Notes under the pieces: model-generated
Seen by the model: the letters and a program-made list of their open reading frames with translations, nothing else
Told to the model about the DNA's origin: nothing
Database searches by the model: none
Program-made: the position numbers and the translations under genes
Source: Candidatus Binatia bacterium
GTDB lineage: Bacteria; Desulfobacterota; Binatia; UBA9968; JAJDTQ01
Length of the DNA stretch: 64,000 nt
Reading direction: 5' to 3'
Assembly (NCBI GenBank): GCA_963666515.2
Contig: OY762897.2
Span: 4,544,001 to 4,608,000, forward strand
Shown here: positions 26,926-48,734 of the stretch, one piece after another
Layout of the letters: every line of letters begins with the position of its first letter
How positions within the stretch are numbered: the stretch's first letter is position 1

Positions 26926-27609
26926 ATGAACCGCAAAATCCCCATCGGCGTCCTGCTCTCGGGCGGAGGCACCAACCTCCAGGCGATCATCGACGCCATC
27001 GAAAGCGGCAACCTGGACGCAGACATCCGCACCGTCGTCAGCAACCGCGAGAACGCCTACGGCCTCACCCGCGCCCGCAACCACGGCATCCCCGCCACCG
27101 TCATCGACCACCGCGGCCACCCGTCACGGGAAGCATACGACCGGGTGGTGGTGGAGCACCTCAAGGGACAGGGCGTGGATCTCGTGGTGCTGGCGGGCTT
27201 CATGCGCTTGCTGTCGCCGCTCTTCATCCAGAGCTTCCCCGACCGCATCATGAACATCCACCCCGCGCTGTCGCCCTCCTTCGCCGGCCTCCACGGCCAG
27301 CGCCAAGCCTTCGAGTACGGCGTCAAGTTCTCCGGCTGCACCGTCCACTTCGTCAGCGAGGGCTGCGACGAAGGCCCCATCATCATCCAGGCCGTCGTCC
27401 CTGTCCTGCCAGATGACACAGAGGAAACCCTCGCGCACCGCATCCTGGTCCAGGAACACCGCATCTACCCCCAGGCCATCCAGCTCTACGGCGAAGGCCG
27501 GCTCGTGATCGAGGGCAGGAAGGTGAAGGTGACGGGGGAGAATGGGGCTGCCGACGAGGATAGTGCGCTGGTGAATCCGCCCATTCCTGGACGGTCCGAG
27601 ACGCGTTGA
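26926..27609 (+). CDS. purN: Phosphoribosylglycinamide formyltransferase
   Basis: Motifs 'SGGGTNLQA', 'LAGFMRLL', 'NIHPAL', 'GCTVHFV', 'DEGPII'. Confidence 0.96.
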   Translation: MNRKIPIGVLLSGGGTNLQAIIDAIESGNLDADIRTVVSNRENAYGLTRARNHGIPATVIDHRGHPSREAYDRVVVEHLKGQGVDLVVLAGFMRLLSPLFIQSFPDRIMNIHPALSPSFAGLHGQRQAFEYGVKFSGCTVHFVSEGCDEGPIIIQAVVPVLPDDTEETLAHRILVQEHRIYPQAIQLYGEGRLVIEGRKVKVTGENGAADEDSALVNPPIPGRSETR

Positions 27610-27671
27610 TCCGGTACTTGACCGAGACCCACGATCCGGGTATATCCCGGTAACGTTTCCGAGGAGGTGCA

Positions 27672-27992
27672 ATGGCTAGCCAACCGGAACAAGAAGGATC
27701 GAACCGGCGGGTCATCCGACACCGTGTACGGGTGTCCGCCGAAGGGTTGAGGCGGGTTGAGGTGACCGTGCCGGCAAACGACTCTCAACTCGTAAAGGCA
27801 TTGGCAGGCGTGCTTCGTGCGGGGGGCGATGAGGCGATGAGGGTGCGCGAGGCCTTCATGTCAATGACGGCTACGGAACCCGTGCGCACTGGCGCCGAGC
27901 TCCTGGTTTTCCTACGCACCTCGCCGCTGGTGGGTGAAGACCTGACAATCGAGCGTGACAAAACCACGGGCCGCACGGTCGACCTCGGATAA
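27672..27992 (+). CDS. Antitoxin (VapB-like, RHH-type N-terminus)
   Basis: 106 aa with a GAGGAGG RBS; 'RRVEVTVP', C-terminal 'SPLVGEDL.IERD...GRTVDL'; coupled to the PIN gene by TAATG. Confidence 0.75.
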   Translation: MASQPEQEGSNRRVIRHRVRVSAEGLRRVEVTVPANDSQLVKALAGVLRAGGDEAMRVREAFMSMTATEPVRTGAELLVFLRTSPLVGEDLTIERDKTTGRTVDLG

Positions 27993-28417
27993 TGGCTTAC
28001 CTGATCGACACGAACGTGATCAGTGAGACTTTCAAGCCGCGACCCGAACGTCGCGTGGTCGATTGGATTGGTCGCCAGATGGCAAGTGATCTGTTCCTTG
28101 CGTCGATCAGCCTTGGTGAACTGGTGCGCGGCGTCCGCCGCATGAGGGAGCAGGCCAGGAGAGAACGCTTTGAACGGTGGATTGATCACGATCTGGCCGC
28201 CCAGTTTCAGGGGCGCATCCTTCCCTTCGACCATGAAGCAGCGGTGATTTGGGGTGAGATCATGGGCGACGGCGACCGGACCGGGCGGCCGAGACCCATG
28301 GCCGACGCGCAAATTGCCGCCGTCGCCCGACGGCATGGTCTGACGCTTGTCACCCGCAATATCCGCGACTTCGCAAAGATGGAAGTGGAGATGTTCGACC
28401 CTTGGGGGTCAGCCTGA
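27992..28417 (+). CDS. vapC: PIN-domain toxin (VapC family)
   Basis: Motifs 'YLIDTNVISE', 'SLGEL', 'LPFD', 'DAQIAA', 'LVTRN..DF'. Confidence 0.92.
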   Translation: MAYLIDTNVISETFKPRPERRVVDWIGRQMASDLFLASISLGELVRGVRRMREQARRERFERWIDHDLAAQFQGRILPFDHEAAVIWGEIMGDGDRTGRPRPMADAQIAAVARRHGLTLVTRNIRDFAKMEVEMFDPWGSA

Positions 28418-28440
28418 CTTCGTGAACGAACTGGTGCCAC

Positions 28441-29313
28441 ATGCCAAAACTTGACGGCGATGGGAACTTGGCAACGAAGCCGGTATTGCCGTTCCTCAAA
28501 TGGCCAGGTGGTAAACGGTGGCTCGTTCCCATCCTACTGACAACTATTCAGCCGACGAAGTTTAAGACGTATTACGAGCCATTTCTCGGTGGTGGTGCGT
28601 TCTTTTTCGCGCTGAATCCCGCAAGTGCTGTTCTTTCAGATGTTAACTCGGACCTAATTAACACCTACCGACAAGTCAGGTACCGTCCTTCCGTCTTGAT
28701 TCGTCAACTCCAAATGTTACCCGTGACAAGGCAGACCTACGAGTCACAGCGCAGACACTCGCCCAAGCGATCTCTCGACCGAGCAGTCCGTTTCCTGTAT
28801 TTGAACCGCACCGCTTTCGGTGGTATCCATCGCCTTAACCAGAGGGGCGAATTCAACGTCCCGTTTGGCGGCGGCGAGCGAACTCCGAAACCCCTTTGGC
28901 AGTCTGGTTTGTTACAAAGAGCCGCACGAGCTCTTCGATCAAGCACCCTTAAAGTTTGCGACTTTGAGCTCGCGATTTCTGAAGCTGATTGTGGCGATCT
29001 GGTCTACTGCGATCCAACGTATACTGTCGCGCACAACAACAACGGCTTCGTTCGATACAACGAGAACAATTTTTCCTGGGCGGATCAGCGGCGACTTGCC
29101 AAGTGCTGTCGTCAGGCGTCGCGAAGGGGTGCGACGGTCATCGTCAGTAACGCGGCTAGTCCGGATGTTCTTGAGCTATTCGATCCCCCACGGCATTTTA
29201 CTGTGAGTCGATCTAGCAACCTCTGTCCCAGAGTAGAGTATCGGCGTGCAACAGAGGAATACTTGTTCGTTTTCTCCTCGGACACGACAGCCCGAGTTGG
29301 ATCGACCGAGTGA
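28441..29313 (+). CDS. Dam-family (D12 class) DNA adenine methyltransferase
   Basis: Motifs 'PFLKWPGGKRWL', 'YYEPFLGGGA', 'SDVN.DLIN', 'FLYLNRT.FGG', 'FNVPFG'; motif IV reads DPTY instead of DPPY. Confidence 0.9.
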   Translation: MPKLDGDGNLATKPVLPFLKWPGGKRWLVPILLTTIQPTKFKTYYEPFLGGGAFFFALNPASAVLSDVNSDLINTYRQVRYRPSVLIRQLQMLPVTRQTYESQRRHSPKRSLDRAVRFLYLNRTAFGGIHRLNQRGEFNVPFGGGERTPKPLWQSGLLQRAARALRSSTLKVCDFELAISEADCGDLVYCDPTYTVAHNNNGFVRYNENNFSWADQRRLAKCCRQASRRGATVIVSNAASPDVLELFDPPRHFTVSRSSNLCPRVEYRRATEEYLFVFSSDTTARVGSTE

Positions 29314-30869
29314 GCTTGACGATGAAGAGCGAGTTTCTAGTTGTGGCCAAGAAGCTCATGGAGAGTGAGAGGCACCCGATGTCGGCTCGAGAGTTGGTTA
29401 AACTGGGAATGGATCGGCAACTCTTCTCGGATAAGATCGCGGGAGAAACTCCTCACCAAACGATGAAGGCCAAGTTGAGTGTTCACATCCGCCGGTTGGG
29501 TGAAAACAGTCTCTTCATCCGTACAGAACCAGGACGGTTCTTTCTGCGACACCTACTTGATAGTAACAGGGAACCGTTTGACGCCAAACCGATCGCACCT
29601 GTCGCGAGCACAGAGCGTGTCTGGGTTTACCGAACCACGGAACTCGACGGGCTAACGACATGGCAGGGGTTGTCGTCAGCTTGGAAGAAGGTAACCCTTG
29701 CCATGTTTTCTACGCTTCGGTGTGATGTTCGAGAGCGCCTTGAGGTTGAGGAAGACAACGATTACACACAGCTTCTGACATATGTCTTGGTCACAAGAGG
29801 TGAGGCCGTTTTGGCATACAGGCGAGGGACCTACAACCGAACTGAACGATATCTGAGAGGGTCGTTTTGCGTCGGTTTTGGGGGTCATGTGATAGAGGGC
29901 GACTTTGATCTCTTTCATGCGGGAGTTGAAGGGATACTTGAGAGTGCATCACGGGAGTTAATGGAGGAGCTGTCTCTTCCACCAACCGACATCGGACGAC
30001 TACGGCGACACGATGACTTGAAGATTGTAGGGATCATCAACGACGATTCTTCGGAGGTGGGCAGACGGCATCTAGCGTTCGTCGTCAACTACGAGGTTAG
30101 CGGTGATAGGTACTGGGACCGTCCCGAGAGAGGGGAGAAGGCGGTCACACAGTTACACTGGATTTCCACCACCGGAACGGCTCAGGTTTCCTTGTGGAAC
30201 TTTGAATACTGGTCACAGCTTTGTCTCCGGCAGTTCAGGCCACGTTTGGTGCGGGAGCGTGCAGCATACCGGCTACTCCGGCGGCGGTCACTGCGGCCTC
30301 CGCACATCTTGTGCATGATTGGCCCGGTTGGCAGCGGGAAGACGATCGCCACAGAGGTCTTGAGAAAGGACTTTGGTTACCGTGAGATCAATTCGGGGAA
30401 GGTCCTAGCAGGTATACTCAAGATTAAGCCGGTATCTGCCGCTCGTAGGCGACAGTTTCAACAGCGGGCGTGGCAATTCATCTCGCAGGAGAGTGGTCCC
30501 ATGCAACTTGCGAAGAGGATCGTCGAGATCGCAAATGGTTTGAACTCGGACAGAATCGTCGTCGATGGAATACGACAAGGACGCACTGTCGAGTCATTGA
30601 AGTTCCTCCTTGGAAGTAGACGACTTGGAGTTGTATTCGTGCAGACGCCTGTGGATTTGGCCTTCAAGTTTTTCGTCGATCGTTTTCCAGAGAATGCGAC
30701 GATGGCCGACTTCTTGGCTGCTAGAGACGCACTGGTCGAACAAGAAGTCGAAGAACTCATCTCAAAGGCCGACGCGGTCCTGTACAACTGGACCGGAACC
30801 CCTCAATATCGTGAAACCATTCGCGCCATGATGAGACAACTCGGAGTTTCCCGGGGGATTGGACGATGA
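29310..30869 (+). CDS. HARE-HTH + NUDIX hydrolase + P-loop nucleotide kinase fusion
   Basis: About aa 5-80: winged HTH 'PMSAREL...GETPHQTM...FIRTEPGRFFL'. Middle: YmaB/COG4112-like NUDIX 'QLLTYV...Y.R...GFGGHV...RELMEEL...GIINDDSSEVGRRHL'. C-terminal: NMP-kinase-like 'GPVGSGKT...VVDGIR...EQEVE...AD.VL.N'. Confidence 0.8.
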   Translation: MSLTMKSEFLVVAKKLMESERHPMSARELVKLGMDRQLFSDKIAGETPHQTMKAKLSVHIRRLGENSLFIRTEPGRFFLRHLLDSNREPFDAKPIAPVASTERVWVYRTTELDGLTTWQGLSSAWKKVTLAMFSTLRCDVRERLEVEEDNDYTQLLTYVLVTRGEAVLAYRRGTYNRTERYLRGSFCVGFGGHVIEGDFDLFHAGVEGILESASRELMEELSLPPTDIGRLRRHDDLKIVGIINDDSSEVGRRHLAFVVNYEVSGDRYWDRPERGEKAVTQLHWISTTGTAQVSLWNFEYWSQLCLRQFRPRLVRERAAYRLLRRRSLRPPHILCMIGPVGSGKTIATEVLRKDFGYREINSGKVLAGILKIKPVSAARRRQFQQRAWQFISQESGPMQLAKRIVEIANGLNSDRIVVDGIRQGRTVESLKFLLGSRRLGVVFVQTPVDLAFKFFVDRFPENATMADFLAARDALVEQEVEELISKADAVLYNWTGTPQYRETIRAMMRQLGVSRGIGR

Positions 30870-31489
30870 GCGGGGGTTACGACGAAGGATATCGACGCTG
30901 CCCTTGTTTTTGGGGCACTAGTCCAGGTAGTTATGTTAAGATTTTAACTCGTTATGTCCGTTCGTTTGACGGTCTCAAGGTCCTCGATGTGGGGTGTGGC
31001 GAGGGGAAGAACGCCGTTTTTTTGGCTGGCCTCGGTGCCGTGGTTGACGCGGTTGACGTTTCACCAGCAGCAATCGAGAACGGTACCAGGATGTGGGGGA
31101 AAGTGAGCAAGGTTTGCTGGATGGTCGCGGACATCCGTGAGTTAGAGTTGAGTCAGGAGTACGACATAGTAGTAGCGTATGGTCTCTGCCACTGTCTTAA
31201 CGACTCTACGGAGGTGTCAACTGTGGTGGCAAAACTGCAGGCCGCAACTGCAAGGGGAGGGTACAACGTACTGTGCGCCTTCAACGACCGTGGTCAGGAC
31301 CTCCTTTCTGCACACGCTGGTTTTGAGCCATGCCTATTAGGACACAGCGACTATCTGTCACAATATGCATCGTGGACAGTCCTTGCGGCGTCTGATTCGG
31401 ACCTAACAGAGAGGCACCCGCATAATGGAATCGACCACACACACTCGCTAACGCGCATTTTAGCAAAAAGAAGACATGATGTCGGTTGA
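30866..31489 (+). CDS. Class I SAM-dependent methyltransferase, TehB-like
   Basis: Motifs 'KVLDVGCGEGKNAVFLA', 'AVDVS', 'ADI', 'YDIVVAYG..H', 'LQAAT..GGYN'. Confidence 0.88.
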   Translation: MSGGYDEGYRRCPCFWGTSPGSYVKILTRYVRSFDGLKVLDVGCGEGKNAVFLAGLGAVVDAVDVSPAAIENGTRMWGKVSKVCWMVADIRELELSQEYDIVVAYGLCHCLNDSTEVSTVVAKLQAATARGGYNVLCAFNDRGQDLLSAHAGFEPCLLGHSDYLSQYASWTVLAASDSDLTERHPHNGIDHTHSLTRILAKRRHDVG

Positions 31490-32303
31490 GGATCTAAAGA
31501 GGTTGTATCGCGACGGACGGCTACTACCGTTCATTGGCGCCGGTGTGTCAGCGTCCGTGGAGTGGAGCGATGCGATGGGTTTACATCGCGGACCGACATG
31601 GGACGAAGTCGTGAGGCACGCGACGCATGAGCTAGGATTTGAAAATGCGACGTTACTCCGTGCAAGGGGGACTGATCTGCAGATACTAGAGTACTTTAAG
31701 CTACAGCATGGCTATGCTCCACTAACGAACTGGTTGGTTCGAGAAATGAACCCGCCAGACGACATTCTTAATAGGTCCATGATTCATAGCGAGCTTGCGA
31801 GGATGACTAAATGTTCAGTCTTTTATACCACAAATTTTGACGACTTTATCGAACGGAGCTTTAAGCTCCACGGGCGCAAGCATAAGAGGGTTGCGGTCGA
31901 GAGAGACATGGGGTCTCAAGAGGGAGTGGCGGAGGTCGTGAAATTCCACGGAGATTGGGGCCATCCGGAGCAAATGGTCCTGACGGAGTCAGACTACGAA
32001 AGACGGATGGAATTTAATGCACCCATGGACATGCGATTGTGGAGTGACCTACTAAATCGGACGATTCTCTTTATTGGGTACAGTTTTCGTGACCCAAACG
32101 TGGCCTACCTTTTTCGACGCGTTAAGGAGCGATTCGCGGAACTGCCGGATACGGTCGATGGCTACCGGGCACACATAGTAGTGCAAGAACCGTCTAGGTT
32201 TGAGCGGAGGTTGTTTCAAGAACGCAATATTCAGGTGATCCCTATAGACAGTGGTGACCTTACGCAACAGGTAGCGGCGCTGCTGGACGAAATCCGGAGT
32301 TAG
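31476..32303 (+). CDS. SIR2-like (SIR2_2) NADase-type protein
   Basis: Motifs 'PFIGAGVS', 'PTW', 'YTTNFD', 'KFHGD', 'VLTESDY', 'LFIGYSFRDPN'. Confidence 0.92.
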   Translation: MMSVEDLKRLYRDGRLLPFIGAGVSASVEWSDAMGLHRGPTWDEVVRHATHELGFENATLLRARGTDLQILEYFKLQHGYAPLTNWLVREMNPPDDILNRSMIHSELARMTKCSVFYTTNFDDFIERSFKLHGRKHKRVAVERDMGSQEGVAEVVKFHGDWGHPEQMVLTESDYERRMEFNAPMDMRLWSDLLNRTILFIGYSFRDPNVAYLFRRVKERFAELPDTVDGYRAHIVVQEPSRFERRLFQERNIQVIPIDSGDLTQQVAALLDEIRS

Positions 32304-32306
32304 GCT

Positions 32307-32963
32307 ATGGCACAGGCAAAGAAGACACGTGTTGTTTATGTAACCAGCAGTGCATTTAAGCAGGAAGAGAACGCAGTATTCGTTGAACACTGCCGGTTGG
32401 ATGACGGCAGGGTCGTTGGTGACGTTTTTGAGTTCGACATTCGGAGAGTGCCGATACAGGAAATCCTAAACGTGGACCTTAGGGTGATGGTCGCGGCTGA
32501 GGTTGTGAGTGCGTACAGTCAGCTTAAGGTGCCCTGTATCGTCGAGCACGCCGGTCTCATATTTGAGGAGTACCTCGATGCGTCTTACCCAGGCGGGCTA
32601 ACGAAACCGATGTGGGACACGCTGAAACAGGGTTTTGTGGATGAGACCAACTCGGCGAATAGAAAGGCTATCGCAAGGGCCGTTGTTGCATACTGCGACG
32701 GAATGACTGTCAAGACGTTCGTCGGGGAGACGAGGGGGACCATTGCGGAGCAGCCTCGTGGTGACCGGGAATTCTATTGGGATACAGTATTTGTTCCGGA
32801 TGATCCGTCCGGCAAGGCAACGGGGATGACGTACGCCGAAATCGCTCAGACTCGGTCACTGGGGCTACAGTATAAGGTGACGGAACTCTCGCAGTCGTCG
32901 GTGGCGATGAAGAGCTTTCTTCGCCACCGTATCGAAGTGGGTGATCCCGCGCTCTGGCGGTAG
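32307..32963 (+). CDS. HAM1/ITPase-fold protein with altered active site
   Basis: Motifs 'YVTSSAFK..E', 'IQE', 'VEHAGL', 'YPGGLTK', 'F.GET.GTI..PRG..FYWD.VF.P', 'TYAE'. Confidence 0.88.
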   Translation: MAQAKKTRVVYVTSSAFKQEENAVFVEHCRLDDGRVVGDVFEFDIRRVPIQEILNVDLRVMVAAEVVSAYSQLKVPCIVEHAGLIFEEYLDASYPGGLTKPMWDTLKQGFVDETNSANRKAIARAVVAYCDGMTVKTFVGETRGTIAEQPRGDREFYWDTVFVPDDPSGKATGMTYAEIAQTRSLGLQYKVTELSQSSVAMKSFLRHRIEVGDPALWR

Positions 32964-33003
32964 CGTTGAGTTGGTCGTCACAAGTGCCAGCGGCGACTGT
33001 CGC

Positions 33004-33178
33004 CTAGTCCACCTTGCCGTTCAGCAGGCTCGAGAGTGTCCCGTGTTTGCAGCCCAAGCGGGGCCGCCTCAGGGACATTTCAGCCGGTCTCTTCCGTGCC
33101 CTCGTGGATCAGTTCGCCCAAATGTGGTAGATTCAGCATAGGGCTTACACGTTTGATATCGTGGGCGCTCATCGTCAT
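33004..33178 (-). pseudogene. HigA-like antitoxin remnant
   Basis: The minus strand reads MTMSAHDIKRVSPMLNLPHLGELIHEGTEETG*NVPEAA, then after a frameshift LGCKHGTLSSLLNGK*. This is a HigA HTH with a nonsense codon and a frameshift. Confidence 0.7.
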
Positions 33179-33191
33179 TACTCCCTTCCCG

Positions 33192-33345
33192 TCAGTGATA
33201 GTCGATCAGGTCCAGGTCCACGGCTTCGCCGCCCACGAACCTGAACACTGCACGCCAGTTGCCGGATACACGAACACTTTGACGGCCAGCCCGGTCCCCC
33301 TTCAAGATGAAGCCGGGCGCGTCGCCACTACTTGGATGTGTTGCC
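33192..33345 (-). pseudogene. HigB/RelE (plasmid-killer family) toxin 3' remnant
   Basis: 'LKGDRAGRQSVRVSGNWRAVFRFVGGEAVDLDLIDYH*' is the canonical HigB C-terminus; the N-terminal half is missing. Confidence 0.75.
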
Positions 33346-33358
33346 TCTTGCAATAGGA

Positions 33359-33399
33359 TTCCTTGAAAATTGACCATTGACAGCGTAATATTCAAGGAA
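33359..33399. promoter_or_regulatory. Inverted repeat, putative operator of the AAA gene
   Basis: TTCCTTGAAAATT-N15-AATATTCAAGGAA (12/13 match) ending next to the ATG at 33400; TTGACA lies in the spacer. Confidence 0.45.
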
Positions 33400-34545
33400 A
33401 TGCCTTTCATCGAGCGAGACGCAATAGAATTCCAGGTCACCCGTGCGTTGCGACGCAGCAGGGGTGTGGTGCTACTGGGTCCCCGCCAGTCGGGCAAGAC
33501 TACCGTGGCGCGCCGCATCGCCAGCGGTCAGCAGGGCGAGTATTTCGATCTTGAGGATCCGTCCGATGTGGCTCGTCTGGAGGCTCCCAGGCTGGTGCTG
33601 GAACGCGCGCAGGGTCTCGTCGTCCTGGACGAGATCCAGTTGCGGGTGGATCTTCTGCCTTTGCTGCGCGTGCTCCTGGACCGGCAGCCGCTTCCGGCCA
33701 AGTTTCTGCTCCTGGGCAGCGCGGCGCCTGAAATCGTGCGGGGCGCTTCCGAGACCCTCGCAGGCAGGGTAGAGATGGTCGCCATGGCGGGTTTCCGCTT
33801 GGCCGAGGTCGGCGCTACCGGTCGTGACAGGCTGTGGCTGCGCGGAGGCTTCCCGCCGTCGTTCCTCGCCGATTCCGACGAGGACAGCTTCGCTTGGCGC
33901 GACAGCTTCGTACAGACGTTCGTCGAGCGCGACCTCCGTCGCTGGGGTTTCGAGATGGCGCCCGCGGCCATGCGCCGCTTCCTGACGATGACCGCCCATC
34001 TCCACGGGCAGCGCTGGAACGCCTCGGCCGTAGGCTCTTCGCTTGGAATCTCGCAGAATACGGTGCGGCGCTACCTGGACCTTCTCACGGGCGCCTATCT
34101 GACCCGCCAACTGCACCCGTGGTTCGAAAATGTCGGCAAGCGGCTTGTCAAATCACCGAAGGTCTACGTCCGTGACAGCGGTGTGCTGCATGCCCTGCTG
34201 GGCCTGGAGCGTCAACGCGAGGTGGAGTCCCATCCCGGGCACGGCGCTTCGTGGGAGGGCCTCTGCGTCGAGGAGATCGTCGCCGTTCACGGCGAGCGGA
34301 ACTGCTGGTTCTGGGCCACTCACGGCGGAGCCGAACTGGACGTGCTGGTGCTCGACCGCGGACGGCGCATAGGCTACGAGTGCAAATTGACGGACACCCC
34401 GAGAATGACCAAGTCGATGCACGTGGTGCTGGCCGATCTCAAGCTCGACCATCTGTTCGTCGTCTATCCCGGGGAGCTACGGTTCCCGCTCGCGGAGCAT
34501 GTGACTGCAATCGGGCTGGCTGACATCGGGCGCGACCCGGCCTGA
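33400..34545 (+). CDS. AAA_14 ATPase with DUF4143 / C-terminal nuclease-like fold
   Basis: Motifs 'GPRQSGKTT', 'LDEIQ', 'LLGSA', 'SETLAGR', 'GGFP', 'KSPKVY.RDSG', 'ELD.L...GYECK'. Confidence 0.9.
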   Translation: MPFIERDAIEFQVTRALRRSRGVVLLGPRQSGKTTVARRIASGQQGEYFDLEDPSDVARLEAPRLVLERAQGLVVLDEIQLRVDLLPLLRVLLDRQPLPAKFLLLGSAAPEIVRGASETLAGRVEMVAMAGFRLAEVGATGRDRLWLRGGFPPSFLADSDEDSFAWRDSFVQTFVERDLRRWGFEMAPAAMRRFLTMTAHLHGQRWNASAVGSSLGISQNTVRRYLDLLTGAYLTRQLHPWFENVGKRLVKSPKVYVRDSGVLHALLGLERQREVESHPGHGASWEGLCVEEIVAVHGERNCWFWATHGGAELDVLVLDRGRRIGYECKLTDTPRMTKSMHVVLADLKLDHLFVVYPGELRFPLAEHVTAIGLADIGRDPA

Positions 34546-40262: not shown

Positions 40263-40595
40263 ATGAGAAAGCTCCTATCCATCATCCGGCTCCGTTGCCC
40301 CCGTTGCGCCGCCGGCCCGATCTTCGCGAGCCTCTTGCGGATGAATCCCCGGTGCCCGGTCTGCGGCCTTGAGTTCGAGCGTGAGCAGGGTTACTTTGTC
40401 GGCGCCATGTACTTCAGCTACGCTTTGGCCCTCGCCGCGGTCCTGCCCGTCGTCGTTGCCATGCTGCTGCTCGGCTTCGGGGCCGCCCCCATCTATGTCG
40501 TGTCGTGCTTGGTGCTGGTCGTTCTCGCGCCGTTCCTGTTCCGGTACTCCCGGGTCATCTGGATACATCTCGACCAGGTGATCGATCCGAGGTAG
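40263..40595 (+). CDS. DUF983 family membrane zinc-ribbon protein
   Basis: 'RCPRC...CPVCG.EFEREQGYF.GAMY' followed by two TM segments. Confidence 0.8.
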   Translation: MRKLLSIIRLRCPRCAAGPIFASLLRMNPRCPVCGLEFEREQGYFVGAMYFSYALALAAVLPVVVAMLLLGFGAAPIYVVSCLVLVVLAPFLFRYSRVIWIHLDQVIDPR

Positions 40596-40612
40596 GAGGC
40601 GAAGAGAGGAAC

Positions 40613-41107
40613 ATGGCAATGGTTGAGCCCGCGAACGGCCCGCTGAGATTCGCCGCCGACAAGATGCTCGGCCGCTTGGCCAAGTGGCTCCGTATCATCG
40701 GGCAGGACGTCATCTACGGGCACCACCTCTCCGGACAGGGCTTGGTGCGGGCGGCGGCGCGCGAGCGGCGTGTCATGCTCACCCGGGACCGCAGGATCTG
40801 GCGCTGGAACCGGGAGCAGAGCATCTTCATCCGGGACGATCACTTCCGGGGACAGTTGAGACAGGTGGTGGCGGAATGCGGGCTGGACCCTTTCGAGGGT
40901 CTCCTGACCCGGTGCGTCGAGTGCAACGAGGCGCTCCAGCCCATCGCCCGGGAGCAGGTCAAGGAGACCGTCCCTCCGTACGTCTTCGAGACGCAGGAGG
41001 TCTTCTCCAGTTGTCCGGGCTGTAGCCGGCTCTTCTGGCCCGCCACGCACCAGAAGCTCATGATGGAGGAGCTTGAGCGCCTGGGATTCGCCGCTCCTGG
41101 AAATTGA
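40613..41107 (+). CDS. Mut7-C RNase domain protein
   Basis: Motifs 'DKMLGRLAKWLR..G.D', 'LTRDR', 'RC..CN', 'C..C....W'. Confidence 0.88.
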   Translation: MAMVEPANGPLRFAADKMLGRLAKWLRIIGQDVIYGHHLSGQGLVRAAARERRVMLTRDRRIWRWNREQSIFIRDDHFRGQLRQVVAECGLDPFEGLLTRCVECNEALQPIAREQVKETVPPYVFETQEVFSSCPGCSRLFWPATHQKLMMEELERLGFAAPGN

Positions 41108-41160
41108 AGCGGCCGTGTGCTAGGTTCCGTGTGTCAGGTCTGTCAGGTCTTACCAGCCGT

Positions 41161-41236
<76 letters not shown>

Positions 41237-42906: not shown

Positions 42907-45681
42907 GTGACCGGAATGCCGACCCCCAACCAGACCCCCGAGCAGGCCGCGCGGGACAGGATCGACGAGATGCTGTCCCGCGCGGGATGGGTGGTTCAGG
43001 ACAACAGGAAGATCGATTTCAGCGCCAGCCCGGGGGTCGCGGTCCGCGAGTACCAGACCGATGTCGGCCCGGCCGACTATGTTCTGTTCGTGGACAAGAA
43101 ACCGGTCGGGGTCGTCGAGGCCAAGCCGGAGGATTGGGGCCAGAAGATCACCACGGTCGAGGAGCAGTCCTCGGCCTATGCCGCGGCCAAGCTCAAGTGG
43201 GTGAACAACCGGGAGCCGCTGCCGTTCGTCTACGAGTCCACCGGCGTGTTGACCCGCTTCACCGACGGTCGCGATCCCAAGCCCCGATCCCGCGAAGTGT
43301 TCGGCTTCCCCCGGCCGGATACGGTGCAGCACTGGCGCGCCCAGCCGGCTTCGCTCCGCAGGCGGCTCCAGGGGCTTCCGGCATTGGATACGGCAGGCCT
43401 CCGGGCGTGCCAAGTCAACGCCATCGAGAAGCTGGAGACATCCTTCAGGGATGACCGTCCGCGCGCCCTCATCCAGATGGCCACGGGTTCGGGCAAGACC
43501 TATACCGCCATCACGTCGATCTACCGGCTCCTCAAGCACGCCGACGCCAAGCGGGTCCTCTTCCTGGTGGACACCAGGAACCTGGGCGAACAGGCCGAGC
43601 AGGAGTTCATGGCCTACCTGCCCTGCGACGAGAACCGCAAGTTCACCGAGTTGTACAACGTCCAGCGCCTCAGGTCGTCCTTCGTGGCCAGGGACAGCCA
43701 GGTCTGCATCAGCACCATCCAGCGCGTGTATTCGCTCCTGAAGGGCCAGGAGATGGACGAGTCCGCGGAGGAGATCAATCCCGCGGAGATGGTTCAGCCC
43801 AGACAACCCATGCCGGTGGTCTACAACGACAGGATTCCGCCCGAGTTCTTCGACTTCGTCATCATCGACGAGTGCCACCGGTCGATCTACAACCTCTGGA
43901 GCCAGGTCCTGGAGTACTTCGACGCCTATCTCATCGGCCTCACCGCCACGCCGGACAGCCGCACCTACGGGTTCTTCAGGAAGAACGTCGTCAGCGAATA
44001 CGACCACGAGCAGGCCGTGGCCGACGGCGTCAACGTGGGCAATGAAATCTACATCATCGACACGGAGAAGACGCGCCAGGGCGGCCAACTCAGGGCGGAC
44101 CAGCAGATCGAGAAGCGCGAACGCCTGACGCGCCGGAGGCGCTGGACGGTGCAGGACGAAGACACCACCTATGCCGCCAACCAGCTCGACCGTAGCGTCG
44201 TCAACCCGGACCAGATCCGCACCGTCGTCCGCGCCTTCCGCGAAAAGCTGCCGGAGATATTCCCCGGCCGCGGGGAAGTCCCGAAGACGCTGGTCTTCGC
44301 CAAGACCGACAGCCACGCCGACGACATCATCCAGACCGTGCGCGAGGAGTTCGGCGAGGGCAACGAGTTCTGCAAGAAGATCACCTACCGGGTCGAGGAA
44401 GACCCGAAGTCCCTCCTCGCCCAGTTCCGCAACGACTACTACCCGCGCATCGCCGTGACCGTGGACATGATCGCCACGGGCACCGACGTGAAGCCATTGG
44501 AATGCCTGCTTTTCATGCGTGACGTGCGGAGCCGCAACTACTTCGAGCAGATGAAGGGCCGCGGCACCCGCACCCTGGGCCACGACGATCTCAGGAAGGT
44601 CACCCCATCCGCTCTCACCGCCAAGACCCACTACGTGATCGTGGACGCCGTGGGAGTCACGAAGTCGCTCAAGACCGCCAGCCGGCCGCTCATCACCCAG
44701 CCGTCGGTCCCGCTCAAGGACCTCGCCATGGGCGTGATGATGGGCGCCCGGGACGAGGACACGGTGGCGTCCCTGGCCGGCCGCCTCGCCCGGCTCGATC
44801 GACAGCTCGACCACGCCGAGAAGGAGCGGATCAAGGCGAAGGCCGGGGGCACGGAACTGACGCAGATCGTCGGCGATCTCCTGGCGGCCATCGACCCGGA
44901 CCGCATCGACGAGAAGGCGCGCGAGATCGAGCCCGTGTCCGAAGGCGCGAAACCGTCGCCGGTGGCCTACGACAAGGCACGGGAAAAGTTGGTCGGCGAC
45001 GCCGCGGCCGTCTTCAACGGCGAGTTGATCGAGCTGATCGACTCGATCCGCCGCGACAAGGAACAGACCATCGACCACGAAAGCCTGGACAAGGTCCTCC
45101 GCGCCGAATGGGAAGGCGACGCTCAAGAGAACGCCGAGGCCATGGTCCAGGACTTCCGGAGCTACCTGGAAGCCCACCGCGACGAGATCGAAGCCCTCAC
45201 AATCTTCTACGCCCAGCCGCATCGCCGCCGGGAGCTGACCTACGCCATGATCCGCGAGGTGTTCGACAGGCTCAAGAGCGACCGGCCACTGCTGTCCCCC
45301 TTGCGGGTGTGGCAAGCCTACGCCCTGCTGGATGAATACAAGGGCGGCCAACCGGCCAGCGAGTTGACGGCGCTGGTCGCCCTGATCCGCAGGGTGTGCG
45401 GCATCGACGCGACCCTGTCGCCCTACGCCGAAACCGTGCGCCGCAACTTCCAGAACTGGATCATGACTCACCACAGCGGCGGCGGCGAGAAGTTCAACGA
45501 GGACCAGATGGAGTGGCTCCGCATGATCCGGGACCACATCACCCACTCCTTCCACCTGGAACGCGGCGACCTCGACATGGCGCCATTCGACGGCAAGGGC
45601 GGGTTGGGCAGGATGTACCAGTTGTTCGGGGAGCGGATGGACGGCGTGATTGATGAGTTGAATGGGGTGTTGGCGGGATGA
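42907..45681 (+). CDS. hsdR: Type I RM restriction subunit
   Basis: Motifs 'PEQAARDRID', 'ADYVLF...VVEAK', 'MATGSGKT', 'DECHRS', 'TATP', 'QMKGRGTR', and an EcoEI-type C-terminus. Confidence 0.93.
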   Translation: MTGMPTPNQTPEQAARDRIDEMLSRAGWVVQDNRKIDFSASPGVAVREYQTDVGPADYVLFVDKKPVGVVEAKPEDWGQKITTVEEQSSAYAAAKLKWVNNREPLPFVYESTGVLTRFTDGRDPKPRSREVFGFPRPDTVQHWRAQPASLRRRLQGLPALDTAGLRACQVNAIEKLETSFRDDRPRALIQMATGSGKTYTAITSIYRLLKHADAKRVLFLVDTRNLGEQAEQEFMAYLPCDENRKFTELYNVQRLRSSFVARDSQVCISTIQRVYSLLKGQEMDESAEEINPAEMVQPRQPMPVVYNDRIPPEFFDFVIIDECHRSIYNLWSQVLEYFDAYLIGLTATPDSRTYGFFRKNVVSEYDHEQAVADGVNVGNEIYIIDTEKTRQGGQLRADQQIEKRERLTRRRRWTVQDEDTTYAANQLDRSVVNPDQIRTVVRAFREKLPEIFPGRGEVPKTLVFAKTDSHADDIIQTVREEFGEGNEFCKKITYRVEEDPKSLLAQFRNDYYPRIAVTVDMIATGTDVKPLECLLFMRDVRSRNYFEQMKGRGTRTLGHDDLRKVTPSALTAKTHYVIVDAVGVTKSLKTASRPLITQPSVPLKDLAMGVMMGARDEDTVASLAGRLARLDRQLDHAEKERIKAKAGGTELTQIVGDLLAAIDPDRIDEKAREIEPVSEGAKPSPVAYDKAREKLVGDAAAVFNGELIELIDSIRRDKEQTIDHESLDKVLRAEWEGDAQENAEAMVQDFRSYLEAHRDEIEALTIFYAQPHRRRELTYAMIREVFDRLKSDRPLLSPLRVWQAYALLDEYKGGQPASELTALVALIRRVCGIDATLSPYAETVRRNFQNWIMTHHSGGGEKFNEDQMEWLRMIRDHITHSFHLERGDLDMAPFDGKGGLGRMYQLFGERMDGVIDELNGVLAG

Positions 45682-47261
45682 AAGACCAGCCAACACCGGA
45701 CGTGCCCATCGGTTGGGAATGGGCGAGCCTTGACGCGGTCACGGAACTGAACCCACGATTCGAAATCGCCACCCGCACGGACAATCCGAATGTGTCGTTT
45801 GTACCTATGCCTGCCGTGGAGGCCGGTACGGGCATCGTTGATGTCAGTCGTACACGACGCCTTGAAGAGGTGAGAAAGGGCTACACTCATTTCAGAGAGG
45901 GCGACGTGCTTTTCGCCAAGATCACGCCGTGCATGGAAAACGGCAAGATGGCGGTCGTCCCGCCTCTGGAGAACGATCTTGGTTTCGGATCGACCGAGTT
46001 CCATGTGCTGAGGCCATACCGAGGAATTAGTCCACAGTACATCTACCACTATGTCTCGTCGCAACAGTTCCGCAGCCGAGCGCAACACAACATGACCGGC
46101 GCCGTCGGTCAGCGTCGTGTTCCGGCTTCCTATGTGGCGGATCAATCTGTGCCGATTCCACCGAGTTGTGAGCAACTACGCATCGTCGCCAAGATCGAAG
46201 AACTCTTCTCGGAACTCGACAGGGGCATCGAGAGTCTGAAGACAGCGCGCAGGCAGCTTGATGTCTATCGACAATCTGTCCTGAAGCACGCCTTCGAGGG
46301 GAAGCTCACGACACAATGGCGCGAAGAGAACAAGGACAAGCTTGAGACGCCAGACCAGTTGCGCGCCCGCATCAGGCGGGAGCGGAAAGAACACTACGAG
46401 CGGCAGCTTCAGAAGTGGAAACAAGCTATCAGCGGGTGGGAGGAGGCTGGCCAAGCAGGTAAGAAGCCGAGGAGGCCTGTGACTGTCGAGAGACTAACGG
46501 AAGAGGCCAATGCTAGATCGGAAGGACTTCCTGTCAACTGGACGTCGTTTTGCGCTGATTCACTGGGAGTCATTCAACTTGGTCGACAGCGGTCTCCCAA
46601 GAACAGATCGCGGGACTATCCAACGAAGTACATCAGGGCGGCAAACATCACGGAACGGGGTTTGGACTTGGACGATGTCCTTGACATGGATTTTCGTCCC
46701 GATGAAGTCGACGCATACCGGCTTGAGAAAGCGGATTTAGTGCTTTCGGAAGCCTCGGGGAGCCCAGCGCAGGTTGGAAAGCCGGCGATTTGGGCTGACC
46801 AAATCCCGAATTGTTGTTTCCAGAACACGGTTATAAGACATCAACCGCATCGTCGAGAACACGCTCCATATCTTTATTGGGTGTATCGCTTCTTCTACTT
46901 GAACGGGAAGTTCGCACAAGTTGCTGGGGGTGTTGGGATCAACCACTTGAGTGCATCCAAGTTTAGCCGGATGGTCGTTCCTCTGTGTTCCCTTCCAGAG
47001 CAAAGACAAGTGGTCGGTCTATTGGAGCAGCTATTCTCCGAGATAGAGCAGAACGAGCGCGAGATCATTACCGTCTTGGAGCAGGCCGAGGTGCTTCGCC
47101 AGTCGATTCTCAGGAAAGCATTCTCCGGCCAACTGGTCCCCCAGGACCCGGATGACGAGCCCGCTTCCATCCTGCTGGAGAAGATCAGGCTCGATAGGGA
47201 GAAGGCTGTTAGAGGCGCTCCAACCGCCAGACGAAAAAGGAAAACAACGCCTGTGGAATGA
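45678..47261 (+). CDS. hsdS: Type I RM specificity subunit
   Basis: Motifs 'P.GWEW', 'GDVLFAKITPCMENGK', 'PIPP..EQ.RIV.KIEELFS', 'LRQSILRKAFSGQL.PQDP.DEPA'. Confidence 0.92.
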   Translation: MKDQPTPDVPIGWEWASLDAVTELNPRFEIATRTDNPNVSFVPMPAVEAGTGIVDVSRTRRLEEVRKGYTHFREGDVLFAKITPCMENGKMAVVPPLENDLGFGSTEFHVLRPYRGISPQYIYHYVSSQQFRSRAQHNMTGAVGQRRVPASYVADQSVPIPPSCEQLRIVAKIEELFSELDRGIESLKTARRQLDVYRQSVLKHAFEGKLTTQWREENKDKLETPDQLRARIRRERKEHYERQLQKWKQAISGWEEAGQAGKKPRRPVTVERLTEEANARSEGLPVNWTSFCADSLGVIQLGRQRSPKNRSRDYPTKYIRAANITERGLDLDDVLDMDFRPDEVDAYRLEKADLVLSEASGSPAQVGKPAIWADQIPNCCFQNTVIRHQPHRREHAPYLYWVYRFFYLNGKFAQVAGGVGINHLSASKFSRMVVPLCSLPEQRQVVGLLEQLFSEIEQNEREIITVLEQAEVLRQSILRKAFSGQLVPQDPDDEPASILLEKIRLDREKAVRGAPTARRKRKTTPVE

Positions 47262-47282
47262 ACACCGTCGTCCGGTGGCGGG

Positions 47283-47624
47283 TTGAACTATCTTCGACTA
47301 TTCTTGGTCTACGTGATGGCGACACAGGAAGAAGCGGCGGCGCAGGCTTTCGACGCAGCGTTGCGCAGCCACGGCCGGGAACACGGAGGAGAGATCATGT
47401 CCTATGCCCAGCAACTCCTGGAGGAAGGCCGGAAGAAAGGTCGGAACCAAGGTCGAGTGGAGGGCGCACGACAAGGAAAGGTAGGAGTGGTTGAAGGTCT
47501 TCTGAGGGTCGGAGTGTCGTGGGAAGTGATCGAGTCGGCGACAGGGCTGAACGAAGCCGGTTTCCATGCCCTCAAGGAGCAGTTGTCGGCGTCCGACCGG
47601 TCCGACGGGCAGGGGGTGGAGTAG
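47283..47624 (+). pseudogene. C-terminal fragment of an Rpn/YhgA-family protein (possible 75-aa mini-ORF from ATG 47397)
   Basis: 'MSYAQQLLEEGRKKG..QG..EG..QG...LLRVG....IESATGL' matches Rpn C-termini; GGAGGA RBS before ATG 47397. Confidence 0.65.
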
Positions 47625-47653
47625 AGGCCGTAGCGGGGCCACGGCATGACCGG
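47379..47653 (+). repeat. Diverged direct repeat, copy 1 (copy 2 at 52023-52280)
   Basis: Both copies start GAACACGGAGGAGAGATCATGTCCTATGC and end CACGGCATGACCGG. Confidence 0.9.
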
Positions 47654-47730
47654 CGAGCTTCCCATTAACCTCCACGAGCTGCTGCGCCAGCGGACCATCG
47701 AGGGTGAACGGGTAGAGTAAAAGGCCGGCT
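47646..47730 (+). pseudogene. N-terminal remnant of an AlbA_2/ATP-binding protein gene
   Basis: Reads MTGELPINLHELLRQRTIEGERVE*KAG, with the stop at 47718 inside an 'EYKAGW'-like motif. Confidence 0.55.
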
Positions 47731-47765
47731 GTCCCATCGGCTTAACCAGGAGTTTCTGCGGGATA

Positions 47766-48257
47766 TCAGCAGCGATCTGGCTTCTGAAGCAGCCGGCCGT
47801 TTCGGGAAGAAGGGCTAGCCAGAGATGTCTCGAACTCCCGTTCAGTTCCTCGTAGCCACTGATCAAACATCCGCGCGGTCCGTTCTGTCCGATTCCCACC
47901 CAGTGCACATTCCCAAATTATCGCCACTCGCCACCCGCCTTCCAACAGCTTCTGTCGTACGATTCGGTCGCGCTCCACATTGACCATGAACTTTGCCTGC
48001 CAGTATTCCCAGCGAGTAGACGGGTCCGTCGTGCGACGGCAACCGGCATGGCGGTGCCAAAAGCAACCATGAACGAAACACACCGCCCGGAATTGTCGGA
48101 ATGTGAGATCGGGCGTGCCGGGGAGGCTCGCAACATGAACGCGGTACCTGAGGCCACGCCCGTGTAGAGCCCTTCGCAACGTAAGCTCTGGTTTCGTGTT
48201 CCTTGTACCGATCCGCGCCATGCGCAGCCGGGTTGCTTGATCTACGGAATCAATCAT
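47766..48257 (-). CDS. vsr: Very short patch repair endonuclease
   Basis: Motifs 'MARI..RNTKPE', 'G.RYR', 'LPGTPD', 'FVHGCFWH.H', 'N.ERD', 'GWRV..IWEC'. Confidence 0.93.
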   Translation of the reverse strand: MIDSVDQATRLRMARIGTRNTKPELTLRRALHGRGLRYRVHVASLPGTPDLTFRQFRAVCFVHGCFWHRHAGCRRTTDPSTRWEYWQAKFMVNVERDRIVRQKLLEGGWRVAIIWECALGGNRTERTARMFDQWLRGTEREFETSLASPSSRNGRLLQKPDRC

Positions 48258-48727: not shown

Positions 48728-48734
48728 GCCGCTG

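Follow-up and report, generated by a model that had tools for sequence, protein, structure and literature searches.

A HARE-HTH, NUDIX and NMP-kinase fusion protein as the candidate nucleotide-processing enzyme of a Kongming-type defence cassette

The window, the whole stretch of 64,000 nucleotides of a Candidatus Binatia genome that was analyzed here, contains a low-GC island (GC 0.53-0.58 over 28-34 kb versus 0.66-0.72 in the flanks) that harbors a five-gene operon on the + strand. The first gene (28441..29313, + strand) encodes a Dam-family (D12) N6-adenine DNA methyltransferase, and its stop codon overlaps the GTG of an ORF encoding a fusion of HARE-HTH, NUDIX and NMP-kinase domains (29310..30869, + strand). 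The stop codon of the fusion gene is in turn overlapped by the start of a gene for a predicted TehB-like class I SAM-dependent small-molecule methyltransferase, referred to as MT2 (30866..31489, + strand), followed by the genes of a KomC-like SIR2 NADase, the predicted effector (31476..32303, + strand), and of a KomB-like "defensive" Ham1, the predicted signal sensor (32307..32963, + strand). A scan of positions 27400-33600 showed nothing resembling a terminator inside the operon on the + strand, and promoter matches in the same interval were at chance level only. Defence-type genes adjoin the operon. A flanking VapBC-like pair made of a 106-aa ORF and a PIN-domain protein (27672..28417, + strand; Pfam PIN, 3.3e-18) marks the start of the low-GC island. 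This pair probably lies outside the system, as it is kept beside it in only one of 64 genome loci, that of the nearest relative (L001).

The fusion ORF is present as the sequence-only reading had described it, with 519 amino acids from the GTG at 29310, and the three domains that this reading had assigned to its product proved to be real, the HARE-HTH by Pfam and the NUDIX and kinase folds by superposition of an AlphaFold model (pLDDT 87.3, pTM 0.74). Translation probably starts at the ATG at 29322, yielding a protein of 515 amino acids, because most relatives begin with MKSEFL. The winged-helix HARE-HTH domain (aa 12-81; 29343..29552, + strand) matches Pfam PF05066 with an E-value of 4.6e-9 and a score of 37 bits versus a gathering score cut-off of 25.9; the model displays a helix-strand pattern over this region, and a precomputed Pfam HARE-HTH match exists for most relatives of the protein. 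Neither PADLOC nor NCBIfam assigned the fusion protein to a named system, the sole PADLOC match being a weak one to the P-loop of IetA (E 5.6e-4).

The central domain (aa 102-313; 29613..30248, + strand) has a NUDIX fold of the TM1382 type. Its best match by sequence (phmmer, E 1.2e-8) as well as by structure is TM1382 (PDB 3e57), a putative NUDIX hydrolase from Thermotoga maritima, model residues 102-313 superposing on 178 of 180 residues of 3e57 with a Z-score of 19.5 and an rmsd of 2.7 (Foldseek, E 2.6e-11, TMt 0.74); NUDT15 (5bon) is among the further structure matches. TM1382, to which no function has been assigned, stands alone with a length of about 180-210 residues, whereas the domain of the fusion protein is flanked by the HARE-HTH and the kinase. 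The canonical NUDIX box follows the consensus GX5EX7REUXEEXGU. The box of the fusion protein (about aa 189-223; nt 29874-29978, + strand) keeps E-x7-RE-L-x-EE, with an insertion of 8-9 residues between GGH and the first Glu and a Ser in place of the final Gly, and its residues R215, E216, E219 and E220 (REx2EE) are invariant in all 52 aligned relatives. The Pfam NUDIX family (PF00293) remained below threshold on the fusion protein itself; some of its relatives reach that threshold.

The C-terminal domain (aa 330-514; 30297..30851, + strand) is a P-loop domain of the NMP-kinase fold. The sequence-only reading would have been overturned by any fold other than that of a nucleotide kinase at this place, and structure superposition returned the adenylate-kinase-related Sulfolobus protein SSO1041 (3h0k and 3lw7, Z 19.0 and 18.8), UMP/CMP kinase (Z 16.5) and adenylate kinases (Z 14-16), that is, a range of 14-16.5 for the latter two; viral dNMP kinases match the domain as well, with TMt values of up to 0.74. 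The P-loop GPVGSGKT, residues 338-345, lies at nt 30321-30344, in agreement with the earlier assignment. All 52 aligned relatives share S342, G343, K344, R380, D419, G420, R422 and R458, and in a sequence alignment R380 and DGIR419-422 fall on the Arg and the DGVR of the AMP-bound 3lw7 chain. Together with R458, the third invariant arginine, R380 and R422 are candidate NMP-phosphate/LID arginines. SSO1041 has its fold and P-loop in common with the fusion protein, along with the DGxR motif and the aligned arginines; the identity to SSO1041 and NMP kinases is about 20%, however, and the kinase domain of the fusion protein is joined to a NUDIX domain.

The architecture had been called unusual, which overstated its rarity: it occurs in at least 134 clusters (50% identity; E<=1e-30) and at 144 loci, 64 from genomes and 80 from metagenomes, and is that of a conserved family, a chance ORF being excluded. 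The fusion gene is accompanied by MT2, SIR2 and Ham1 genes at 53 of the 64 genome loci and 56 of the 80 metagenome loci, those without the full gene set being mostly contig ends. The linkage is kept at 13 genome loci where the block of MT2, SIR2 and Ham1 has been flipped or relocated with respect to the fusion gene. Hosts belong to the Acidobacteriota, Nitrospirota, Actinomycetota, Verrucomicrobiota, Chloroflexota, Myxococcota, Bacteroidota, and Alpha- and Gammaproteobacteria, and the tree of the fusion protein is incongruent with host taxonomy. Full-length relatives were found neither in a plasmid collection, which yielded 12 partial matches, nor in a phage collection, which yielded four NUDIX-only matches; one phage relative of the NUDIX domain has a dUTPase on one side and a thioredoxin/guanylate kinase pair on the other. 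In a distant plasmid-borne HARE-HTH and NUDIX-like relative that is paired with CHAT proteases, the NUDIX box is degenerate, suggesting that the module serves as a non-enzymatic sensor in some contexts.

Seven clusters of 738-753 aa carry, after the same NUDIX-kinase core, a C-terminal class I SAM methyltransferase, with the REx2EE residues, the P-loop Lys and the NMP/LID arginines invariant across all seven four-domain relatives; one further cluster, of 668 aa, combines the NUDIX-kinase core with a C-terminal SAM methyltransferase and has no HARE-HTH match. The likeness of the fused methylase to MT2 is confined to the part that binds SAM (29-30% over 76-90 residues), and the two enzymes may therefore differ in chemistry. 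In a sister clade, the NUDIX-kinase enzyme is fused to or paired with another SAM methyltransferase. Four loci (L063, L066, L068 and L070) encode the methylase and NUDIX-kinase pair followed by a conserved protein (about 270 aa) with two TM helices and a soluble domain of PLD-like fold, and have no SIR2-Ham1. The association of one putative generator with two unrelated effectors would be the modular pattern expected of signal-generator/effector systems. We note that an N6_N4 methylase with a RAMA domain adjoins the L066 locus.

MT2 matches Pfam TehB (3.4e-15) as well as Methyltransf_25/11/12, and its motifs are conserved among 41 homologues. The best PDB matches of the family profile are small-molecule methylases (6mro, 1.1e-18; TehB 2xva/4dq0, about 5e-17), among them phosphoethanolamine N-MTases and ToxA, such that MT2 resembles enzymes acting on small molecules rather than those that methylate DNA, RNA or protein. 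Where loci are rearranged, MT2 always moves with SIR2-Ham1 and not with the fusion gene, from which it might belong to the effector side of the system.

The two genes downstream of MT2 are adjacent, as are those of KomC and KomB. The SIR2 protein (Pfam SIR2_2, 2.1e-29; PADLOC ThsA SIR2, 1.2e-27) aligns with KomC (8zsf) over residues 5-258 with an E-value of 1.8e-38, and displays the FHGD histidine as well as an Asp aligned to KomC D194, a residue used as a KomC criterion (PMC13454610). The Ham1 protein (Pfam Ham1p_like, 3.5e-15) matches 9v0g (E 6.9e-23) and KomB (8zsg, E 1.4e-22), and its VEH motif, with His at the position of the catalytic Asp, is shared by 105 of 105 homologues from the system. 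The same Asp-to-His change is described as invariant in defensive HAM1s in the Kongming preprint (10.1101/2024.12.20.629578). A separate housekeeping Ham1 is encoded elsewhere in the genome.

The Dam protein (Pfam MethyltransfD12, 2.4e-40; NCBIfam TIGR00571 dam, 1.7e-57) has DPTY as motif IV, a variant found in 26 of 60 homologues, the others having DPPY (30), DPAY (3) or DPPF (1), and is the only full-length D12 methylase of this genome. A Dam gene is found at 22 of the 53 core genome loci, in 20 of these 22 directly upstream of the fusion gene. None of the 23 alphaproteobacterial rows has it, which a single deep change on the tree would suffice to explain. Dam is an accessory partner found in one of the two clades of the system. 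The proposal that Dam is needed in trans where the operon does not provide it was not upheld, five other Dam-less host genomes giving a mixed answer: a Dam gene elsewhere was full-length in one, partial in one, reduced to weak fragments in two and absent from one. CcrM is an alphaproteobacterial methylase; its substituting for Dam in these hosts was not upheld either, as it is inseparable on the tree from a single ancestral loss. A role for Dam or m6A in the system is weakly indicated. GATC is not avoided in the 64-kb window (368 observed versus 331 +/- 16 expected), a count that says little either way. The HARE-HTH domain of ASXL1 binds 6mA DNA in pull-downs (PMC6591016), and knowledge of the HARE-HTH family together with the adjoining Dam gene suggests that the HARE-HTH domain of the fusion protein may sense DNA.

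The gene neighborhood recalls Kongming, a system composed of the adenosine deaminase KomA, the HAM1-like dITP sensor KomB and the SIR2 NADase KomC (Zeng et al., 10.1101/2024.12.20.629578; Science 2025; structures 8zsf-8zsi and 9v0g), in which base-modified dITP is the immune messenger and a phage dNMP kinase, the trigger, is needed for its synthesis. The Kongming-like setting claimed on sequence grounds holds: the next genes encode a SIR2 and a Ham1 that are most similar to KomC and KomB, the latter with the His for the catalytic Asp, and no match to KomA (PF00962) was found among the operon proteins or in the whole genome (98.35% complete). The low-GC island with its defence-type genes is a further likeness, as is the expected logic, in which a base-modified purine nucleotide would lead to NAD+ depletion. 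Where Kongming uses KomA, however, the present cassette has a SAM methyltransferase and the HARE-HTH-NUDIX-NMP-kinase protein, often with Dam. The kinase borrowed from the phage in Kongming is predicted to be self-encoded here, and the messenger, deaminated in Kongming, would presumably be methylated. With KomB- and KomC-like neighbors and no adenosine deaminase, the earlier suggestion that a self-encoded NMP kinase replaces the phage kinase is a fair hypothesis; the infection trigger would then have to differ from that of Kongming, the kinase step being encoded by the cassette itself. The preprint mentions KomBC associated with an "NTPase" and a "SAM-dependent methyltransferase" when KomA is absent (10.1101/2024.12.20.629578); its main text contains neither "NUDIX" nor "HARE". 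What our literature search on the cassette brought up was limited to papers on classical Kongming and reviews; Aravind and Iyer 2012 (HARE-HTH) may describe the architecture.

On balance, we think it somewhat more likely than not that the fusion protein processes nucleotides for an abortive-infection system of the Kongming type, four to five genes in size, in which it replaces KomA together with MT2. The folds and catalytic residues, the gene linkage, the methylase fusions, the exchangeable effector, the kinship of SIR2 and Ham1 to KomC and KomB and the phage NUDIX relative beside nucleotide enzymes speak for this reading. Against it weigh the non-canonical NUDIX box that the Pfam family misses, the movement of MT2 with SIR2-Ham1, the limited likeness of the fused methylase to MT2, the weakness of the Dam role and the degenerate box of the plasmid-borne relative. 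For such a system we infer a pathway in which the NUDIX domain would cleave pyrophosphate from a purine (d)NTP to leave the (d)NMP, MT2 would methylate the base at the monophosphate level, and the NMP-kinase domain would convert the methylated (d)NMP into the diphosphate, which host NDK would raise to the triphosphate. Homology to KomBC suggests that Ham1, catalytically dead and carrying the His substitution, would bind this non-canonical purine triphosphate and activate the SIR2 NADase, and the ensuing NAD+ depletion would halt the infected cell. The trigger would most plausibly act through the N-terminal HARE-HTH domain: speculatively, this domain may gate the enzyme according to the methylation state or presence of DNA, because its type reads 6mA DNA and Dam is co-encoded. 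The most elaborate form of this scheme, an autonomous system whose messenger is a methylated purine (d)NTP, a so far undescribed kind of second messenger, gated through HARE-HTH by Dam-set adenine methylation and read by a NADase or a membrane effector with a PLD-like fold, strikes us as rather unlikely in all its parts and is put forward tentatively.

CBASS, Pycsar and Thoeris are similarly built, in that the methylase and the NUDIX-kinase protein would form a generator that is combined with SIR2-Ham1 or with the 2TM/PLD-like-fold protein. The generator is neither a cyclase nor a TIR here, however, and its product is predicted to be linear, a nucleotide with a modified base. A comparison by chemistry alone further relates the proposed pathway to phage pathways for modified dNTPs, where a triphosphate is taken to the monophosphate, modified on the base and re-phosphorylated, in T4 by the dCTPase gp56, the dCMP hydroxymethylase gp42 and the dNMP kinase gp1; the phage product enters DNA, whereas the product proposed here would be read by a sensor protein.

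The nearest competitor, which we view as unlikely yet deserving of serious consideration, is a make-and-break switch in which the kinase builds the messenger from a (methylated) NMP and the NUDIX domain hydrolyses that same messenger to the NMP, keeping it low until DNA that is foreign or unmethylated is sensed by the HARE-HTH domain, which then tips the balance. With the catalytic residues invariant, the two domains are both predicted to be active, and a built-in off-switch would avert self-killing by the NADase; the 6mA-reading ability of the domain type and the position of Dam directly upstream in most Dam-bearing core loci would also suit such a switch. NUDIX enzymes, moreover, sanitise methylated purine dNTPs, as exemplified by the hydrolysis of N6-methyl-dATP by MTH1 (PMC7152754). 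Opposed activities would, however, amount to a futile ATP-burning cycle if they were not reciprocally regulated, and the recurrent fusion to or pairing with a methylase is simpler to understand if the NUDIX domain supplies the NMP substrate of the methylase. Enzymes that are fused more often catalyse consecutive steps. In the sequence-only reading, one protein would make the signal and destroy it as well; the recurrence of a SAM methyltransferase as partner or fusion domain fits at least equally well a sequential pathway, from NTP to NMP, through methylation, to re-phosphorylation.

The succession of a DNA-binding domain, a NUDIX domain and a P-loop kinase is also reminiscent of NrtR, which joins a NUDIX domain to a winged helix, and of NadR, which joins an HTH to an enzyme and a P-loop kinase. 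With a NADase gene in the neighborhood of the fusion gene, the protein could be a NAD/ADP-ribose factor of housekeeping or immunity that senses or recycles the products of the SIR2 NADase and regulates the operon, with no part in signal synthesis. The NUDIX domain of NrtR binds ADP-ribose and its box is mostly degenerate, and NadR combines an NMN adenylyltransferase with a ribosylnicotinamide kinase. The box of the fusion protein appears catalytically intact, unlike that of most NrtRs, its nearest structures are TM1382 and NMP kinases, and the NUDIX-kinase enzyme pairs with the 2TM/PLD-like effector in NADase-free loci, all of which makes this reading improbable; that neither PDB search returned an ADP-ribose pyrophosphatase or ribosylnicotinamide kinase among the best 50 matches adds slightly to the case against it. 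Least probable of all is a DNA-modification pathway that places a methylated dNTP in host DNA as a self mark, much as phages handle hypermodified bases, while SIR2-Ham1 monitors the nucleotide pool, for despite the parallel with the T4 enzyme trio and the DNA methylases that accompany the system (Dam here, the RAMA-containing N6_N4 methylase beside L066), the conserved core comprises no dedicated polymerase or mark-reading restriction nuclease, and the partners conserved there, a sensor with an effector that kills the cell, are those of a signalling system.

The sequential, Kongming-type reading that we prefer describes a cassette that keeps the sensor and the effector of Kongming, exchanges the deaminase for a methylase and, as proposed here, brings its own NTP-to-NMP and NMP-to-NDP steps. 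If true, it would add a second class of base-modified messenger, make the KomBC module a general reader of non-canonical purine nucleotides and give a concrete role to the widespread and unexplained pairing of HARE-HTH with Dam. If Dam and HARE-HTH indeed gate the synthesis of the messenger, self-marking in the style of restriction-modification would be joined to abortive infection by a nucleotide second messenger. The cassette is compact with its four core genes, is present in many phyla and has a sister system that employs another effector, which makes it amenable to a direct test by reconstitution.

The + strand open reading frame at 29310-30869 translates without stops into 519 residues, with the P-loop GPVGSGKT at residues 338-345 (nt 30321-30344), exactly where the sequence-only reading had placed it. 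Its GTG start codon (29310) shares bases with the stop of the gene before it; because nearly all relatives begin with MKSEFL, whose equivalent codon in the window is ATG 29322, the protein probably starts there and is 515 aa long. A Pfam search of the protein recognized an N-terminal HARE-HTH domain (residues 12-81, E 4.6e-9, 37 bits vs a cut-off of 25.9) and a weak AAA_17 match in the P-loop region, and returned no NUDIX match. Searches of PDB sequences matched residues 140-257 to TM1382, a putative NUDIX hydrolase (3e57, E 1.2e-8), and residues 334-501 to a Sulfolobus adenylate-kinase-related protein (3lw7/3h0k, E about 1e-5). An AlphaFold2 model built from 52 relatives (mean pLDDT 87.3, pTM 0.74) was compared with solved structures by Foldseek and VIA-align. 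Its residues 102-313 superpose on 3e57 with E 2.6e-11, a Z of 19.5 and an rmsd of 2.7 over 178/180 residues. For residues 330-514, Z was 19.0 and 18.8 against 3h0k and 3lw7, 16.5 against UMP/CMP kinase and 14-16 against many adenylate kinases. Among viral proteins, dNMP kinases and the NUDIX proteins of phages are further structural matches. The three-domain composition proposed earlier from the sequence therefore holds, as does the C-terminal nucleotide-kinase fold on which that proposal depended, since residues 330-514 superpose on NMP kinases.

In a 52-sequence alignment whose rows are 32-77% identical to the window protein, the NUDIX-box residues R215, E216, E219 and E220, the P-loop residues S342, G343 and K344, and R380, D419-G420-x-R422, R458 and E477 are all invariant, R380 and the DGIR motif aligning with an Arg and the DGVR of the AMP-bound 3lw7 chain. 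Relative to the canonical consensus, the NUDIX box is unusual in its 8-9 residue insertion past GGH and in the replacement of its last Gly by Ser. Judged by conservation, both domains look catalytically competent. In P0184, a four-domain relative, the kinase domain (residues 305-499) is matched by the PADLOC model dCTPase (PDLC02373, E 1.9e-11), which gave no match to the window protein at E<=0.01.

The fusion gene is the second in a run of five overlapping or tightly packed + strand genes. It follows the gene for a DNA adenine methylase of the Dam family (28441-29313; Pfam 2.4e-40, TIGR00571 1.7e-57) and precedes that for MT2, a class I SAM methyltransferase resembling TehB (30866-31489). Next come a SIR2_2 protein (31476-32303) closest to KomC (8zsf, E 1.8e-38) and a Ham1-like protein (32307-32963) closest to two chains of Kongming type, 9v0g (6.9e-23) and KomB (8zsg, 1.4e-22). 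KomB and KomC are the HAM1-like dITP sensor and SIR2 NADase of the Kongming anti-phage system. In the window SIR2 the FHGD histidine is retained, as is an Asp at the position of KomC D194 (PMC13454610), and the protein is KomC-like by this measure; Ham1 carries VEH at the site of the catalytic Asp of housekeeping enzymes, a substitution given as invariant in 'defensive HAM1s' by the Kongming preprint (10.1101/2024.12.20.629578), and is KomB-like accordingly. The E-H and W-D pairs of Ham1 are invariant in 105/105 homologues, and a second, housekeeping Ham1 with a strong score is located elsewhere in the same genome. The likeness does not extend to KomA, in that the whole genome (98.35% complete) yielded no adenosine deaminase.

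The operon occupies a low-GC island (GC 0.53-0.58 at 28-34 kb vs 0.66-0.72 on both sides). At its upstream edge lies a VapBC-like pair (106-aa ORF and PIN protein, 27672-28417) that accompanies the system elsewhere only in the closest relative, locus L001, and directly downstream of the operon an AAA_14 + DUF4143 ATPase (33370-34545; PADLOC candidate PDC-S01, 2.7e-78), a fragment of which also follows the system in L001. A second low-GC stretch of the window (45678-51931, GC 0.55-0.57) is a further probable defence cluster, with genes for the specificity subunit of a type I restriction system, a 707-aa HATPase_c_3 (GHKL/MORC-like) protein and a C5 methylase of DNA cytosine. Elsewhere, a Fic/DOC gene (58124-59284) adjoins a 107-aa ORF followed by a 1164-aa ORF (59646-63460; low third-position GC of 0.42-0.50, no Pfam match), and a Mut7-C RNase domain gene precedes the sole tRNA of the window (Asn, 41161-41236) in the stretch 40505-41236.

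When the window's neighbour proteins were searched by tblastn against the loci of relatives (64 genome, 80 metagenome), MT2, SIR2 and Ham1 were found together with the fusion gene in 53 genome and 56 metagenome loci, hereafter core loci. Partial sets occurred in four genome loci (two contig ends, one contig start, one broken by IS elements) and 15 metagenome loci, mostly contig ends. None of the three partners was detected in seven genome loci, three of them contig-limited and two with a truncated fusion gene, or in nine metagenome loci, six of which are of a sister type; L036 and L063 have full flanks yet lack all three. The order MT2-SIR2-Ham1 is constant in all loci, the block being moved or inverted relative to the fusion gene in 13 genome loci. 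In the IS-disrupted system (L061, 6343-11414, from an alphaproteobacterial MAG), rve transposases flank the fusion gene and only a fragment of the methylase is left.

The fusion is less unusual than the sequence-only reading had suggested. A word-indexed search retrieved 329 relatives, the best 120 of which are almost all 490-530 aa with query coverage of at least 94%, several of those listed bearing the JGI name 'predicted NUDIX family phosphoesterase/dephospho-CoA kinase'. An exhaustive search of 1.84 billion cluster representatives returned 2279 proteins at E<=1e-3, and a family of 134 clusters at E<=1e-30. The hosts belong to at least nine different phyla or classes. Fifty fusion proteins (the window's and those of 49 of the 53 core genome loci, limited to loci with one unbroken match segment of >420 residues) were placed on a quick maximum-likelihood tree. 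It resolves two clades, one alphaproteobacterial (23 rows), the other of mixed phyla (27 rows) and incongruent with taxonomy; the window protein clusters with Bryobacterales (Acidobacteriota).

In seven clusters (738-753 aa) a class I SAM methyltransferase is attached C-terminally to the NUDIX-kinase core, and one further methylase-fused cluster (668 aa) has no HARE-HTH hit; in the seven, no catalytic residue of either the NUDIX or the kinase domain varies. Since the likeness of the fused methylase to MT2 is limited to the SAM-binding region (29-30% identity), the two may be different enzymes. The sister system, in which a class I SAM methyltransferase is fused or adjacent to (HARE-HTH-)NUDIX-kinase, was located in L066 (943-4058), L068 (2335-5417), L070 (6977-10091) and L063 (7043-10178), and in part in L067 (3833-6791). 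In the first four, SIR2 and Ham1 are absent, and what comes after methylase and NUDIX-kinase is a conserved 267-296 aa protein with two N-terminal hydrophobic (TM) helices (31-42% identity; L063 vs L066 E 2e-39); the next gene in L067 encodes a 220-aa protein with N-terminal hydrophobic helices and no detectable similarity to these. A PLD-like fold is predicted for the soluble part of the conserved protein (pLDDT 81), matching Nuc (1byr, TMt 0.63), Zucchini, the TrmB sugar-binding domain and FAM83 (E 1e-5 to 1e-3); its consensus lacks an HxK motif. A 5.8-billion-protein collection contains just 20 relatives of this protein, which matched nothing in Pfam or PADLOC. 

More distantly, a two-gene operon on alphaproteobacterial plasmids (pTi, L146:6013-8630; Leisingera, L147:5992-8600) couples a 308-aa HARE-HTH + NUDIX-like protein, whose NUDIX box is degenerate, to a CHAT-domain protease gene that overlaps it by 4 bases and is translationally coupled; on pTi its neighbours are more CHAT genes and a TIR + caspase pair. 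The operon resembles a further conflict system that uses this sensor module, and these relatives show that the module can apparently also act without catalysis. In Geobacillus phage GR1 (L149:3137-5368), a NUDIX-domain homologue lies within a nucleotide-metabolism block (dUTPase, NUDIX, thioredoxin, guanylate kinase).

Among the core loci, 22/53 from genomes and 29/56 from metagenomes include Dam, whose motif IV is DPPY or DPTY. In 20 of the 22 genome loci that have it, Dam immediately precedes the fusion gene, and it does so even after relocation of MT2-SIR2-Ham1. It is missing from all 23 alphaproteobacterial tree rows; its distribution on the tree needs six changes and, as the deep split is one of these, the alphaproteobacterial absence could be one old event. 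Among five Dam-less hosts outside that clade, Dam elsewhere in the genome is clear in one, partial in one, present as weak fragments in two and not found in one. In L066, an N6_N4 DNA methylase with a fused RAMA domain (4087-5187) directly follows the 2TM effector and is a second, independent link of this enzyme family to DNA methylation. The link to DNA adenine methylation is therefore recurrent, not universal.

The MT2 family has strongly conserved family-specific motifs, and its profile best matches, among solved structures, 6mro/8gdu (about 1e-18) and TehB (about 5e-17), followed by phosphoethanolamine N-methyltransferases and ToxA; as these are small-molecule methylases, its substrate is likely a small molecule. 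The simplest scheme using every conserved part would have the NUDIX domain convert a purine (d)NTP to (d)NMP, the methylase modify the base at the monophosphate level, the NMP kinase raise the methylated (d)NMP to the diphosphate and host NDK to the triphosphate, and the dead Ham1 bind the modified triphosphate and switch on the SIR2 NADase, as in KomBC. Such a scheme would explain the NUDIX-kinase fusion and, in some lineages, the added methylase fusion. Many base-modifying enzymes act at the monophosphate level, and phage routes to modified dNTPs mirror the proposed order. KomA is most active on dAMP, according to the Kongming preprint. Alternatively, as the sequence-only reading had it, the kinase may build and the NUDIX domain destroy the same messenger; the clearance of methylated purine dNTPs by NUDIX enzymes (PMC7152754) is consistent with this. 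That reading's observations (ORF, three domains, kinase fold) stand, and its interpretation in part only.

The kinase is self-encoded, whereas classical Kongming uses that of the phage; the trigger cannot, for this reason, be the phage kinase. The obvious candidate sensor is the HARE-HTH domain; such domains are predicted readers of N6-methyladenine (PMC4738411), and that of ASXL1 bound 6mA DNA selectively in pull-downs (PMC6591016). We note that the association seen here was already glimpsed in the Kongming preprint, which names 'NTPase' and 'SAM-dependent methyltransferase' among the genes that accompany KomBC where KomA is missing, and the main text of which does not use the words NUDIX or HARE; full-text searches of the literature returned no description of the system. 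One generator with two unrelated effectors is a hallmark of signalling defence systems, and the fusion protein is apparently the conserved, active nucleotide-processing core of an uncharacterised system of the Kongming type.
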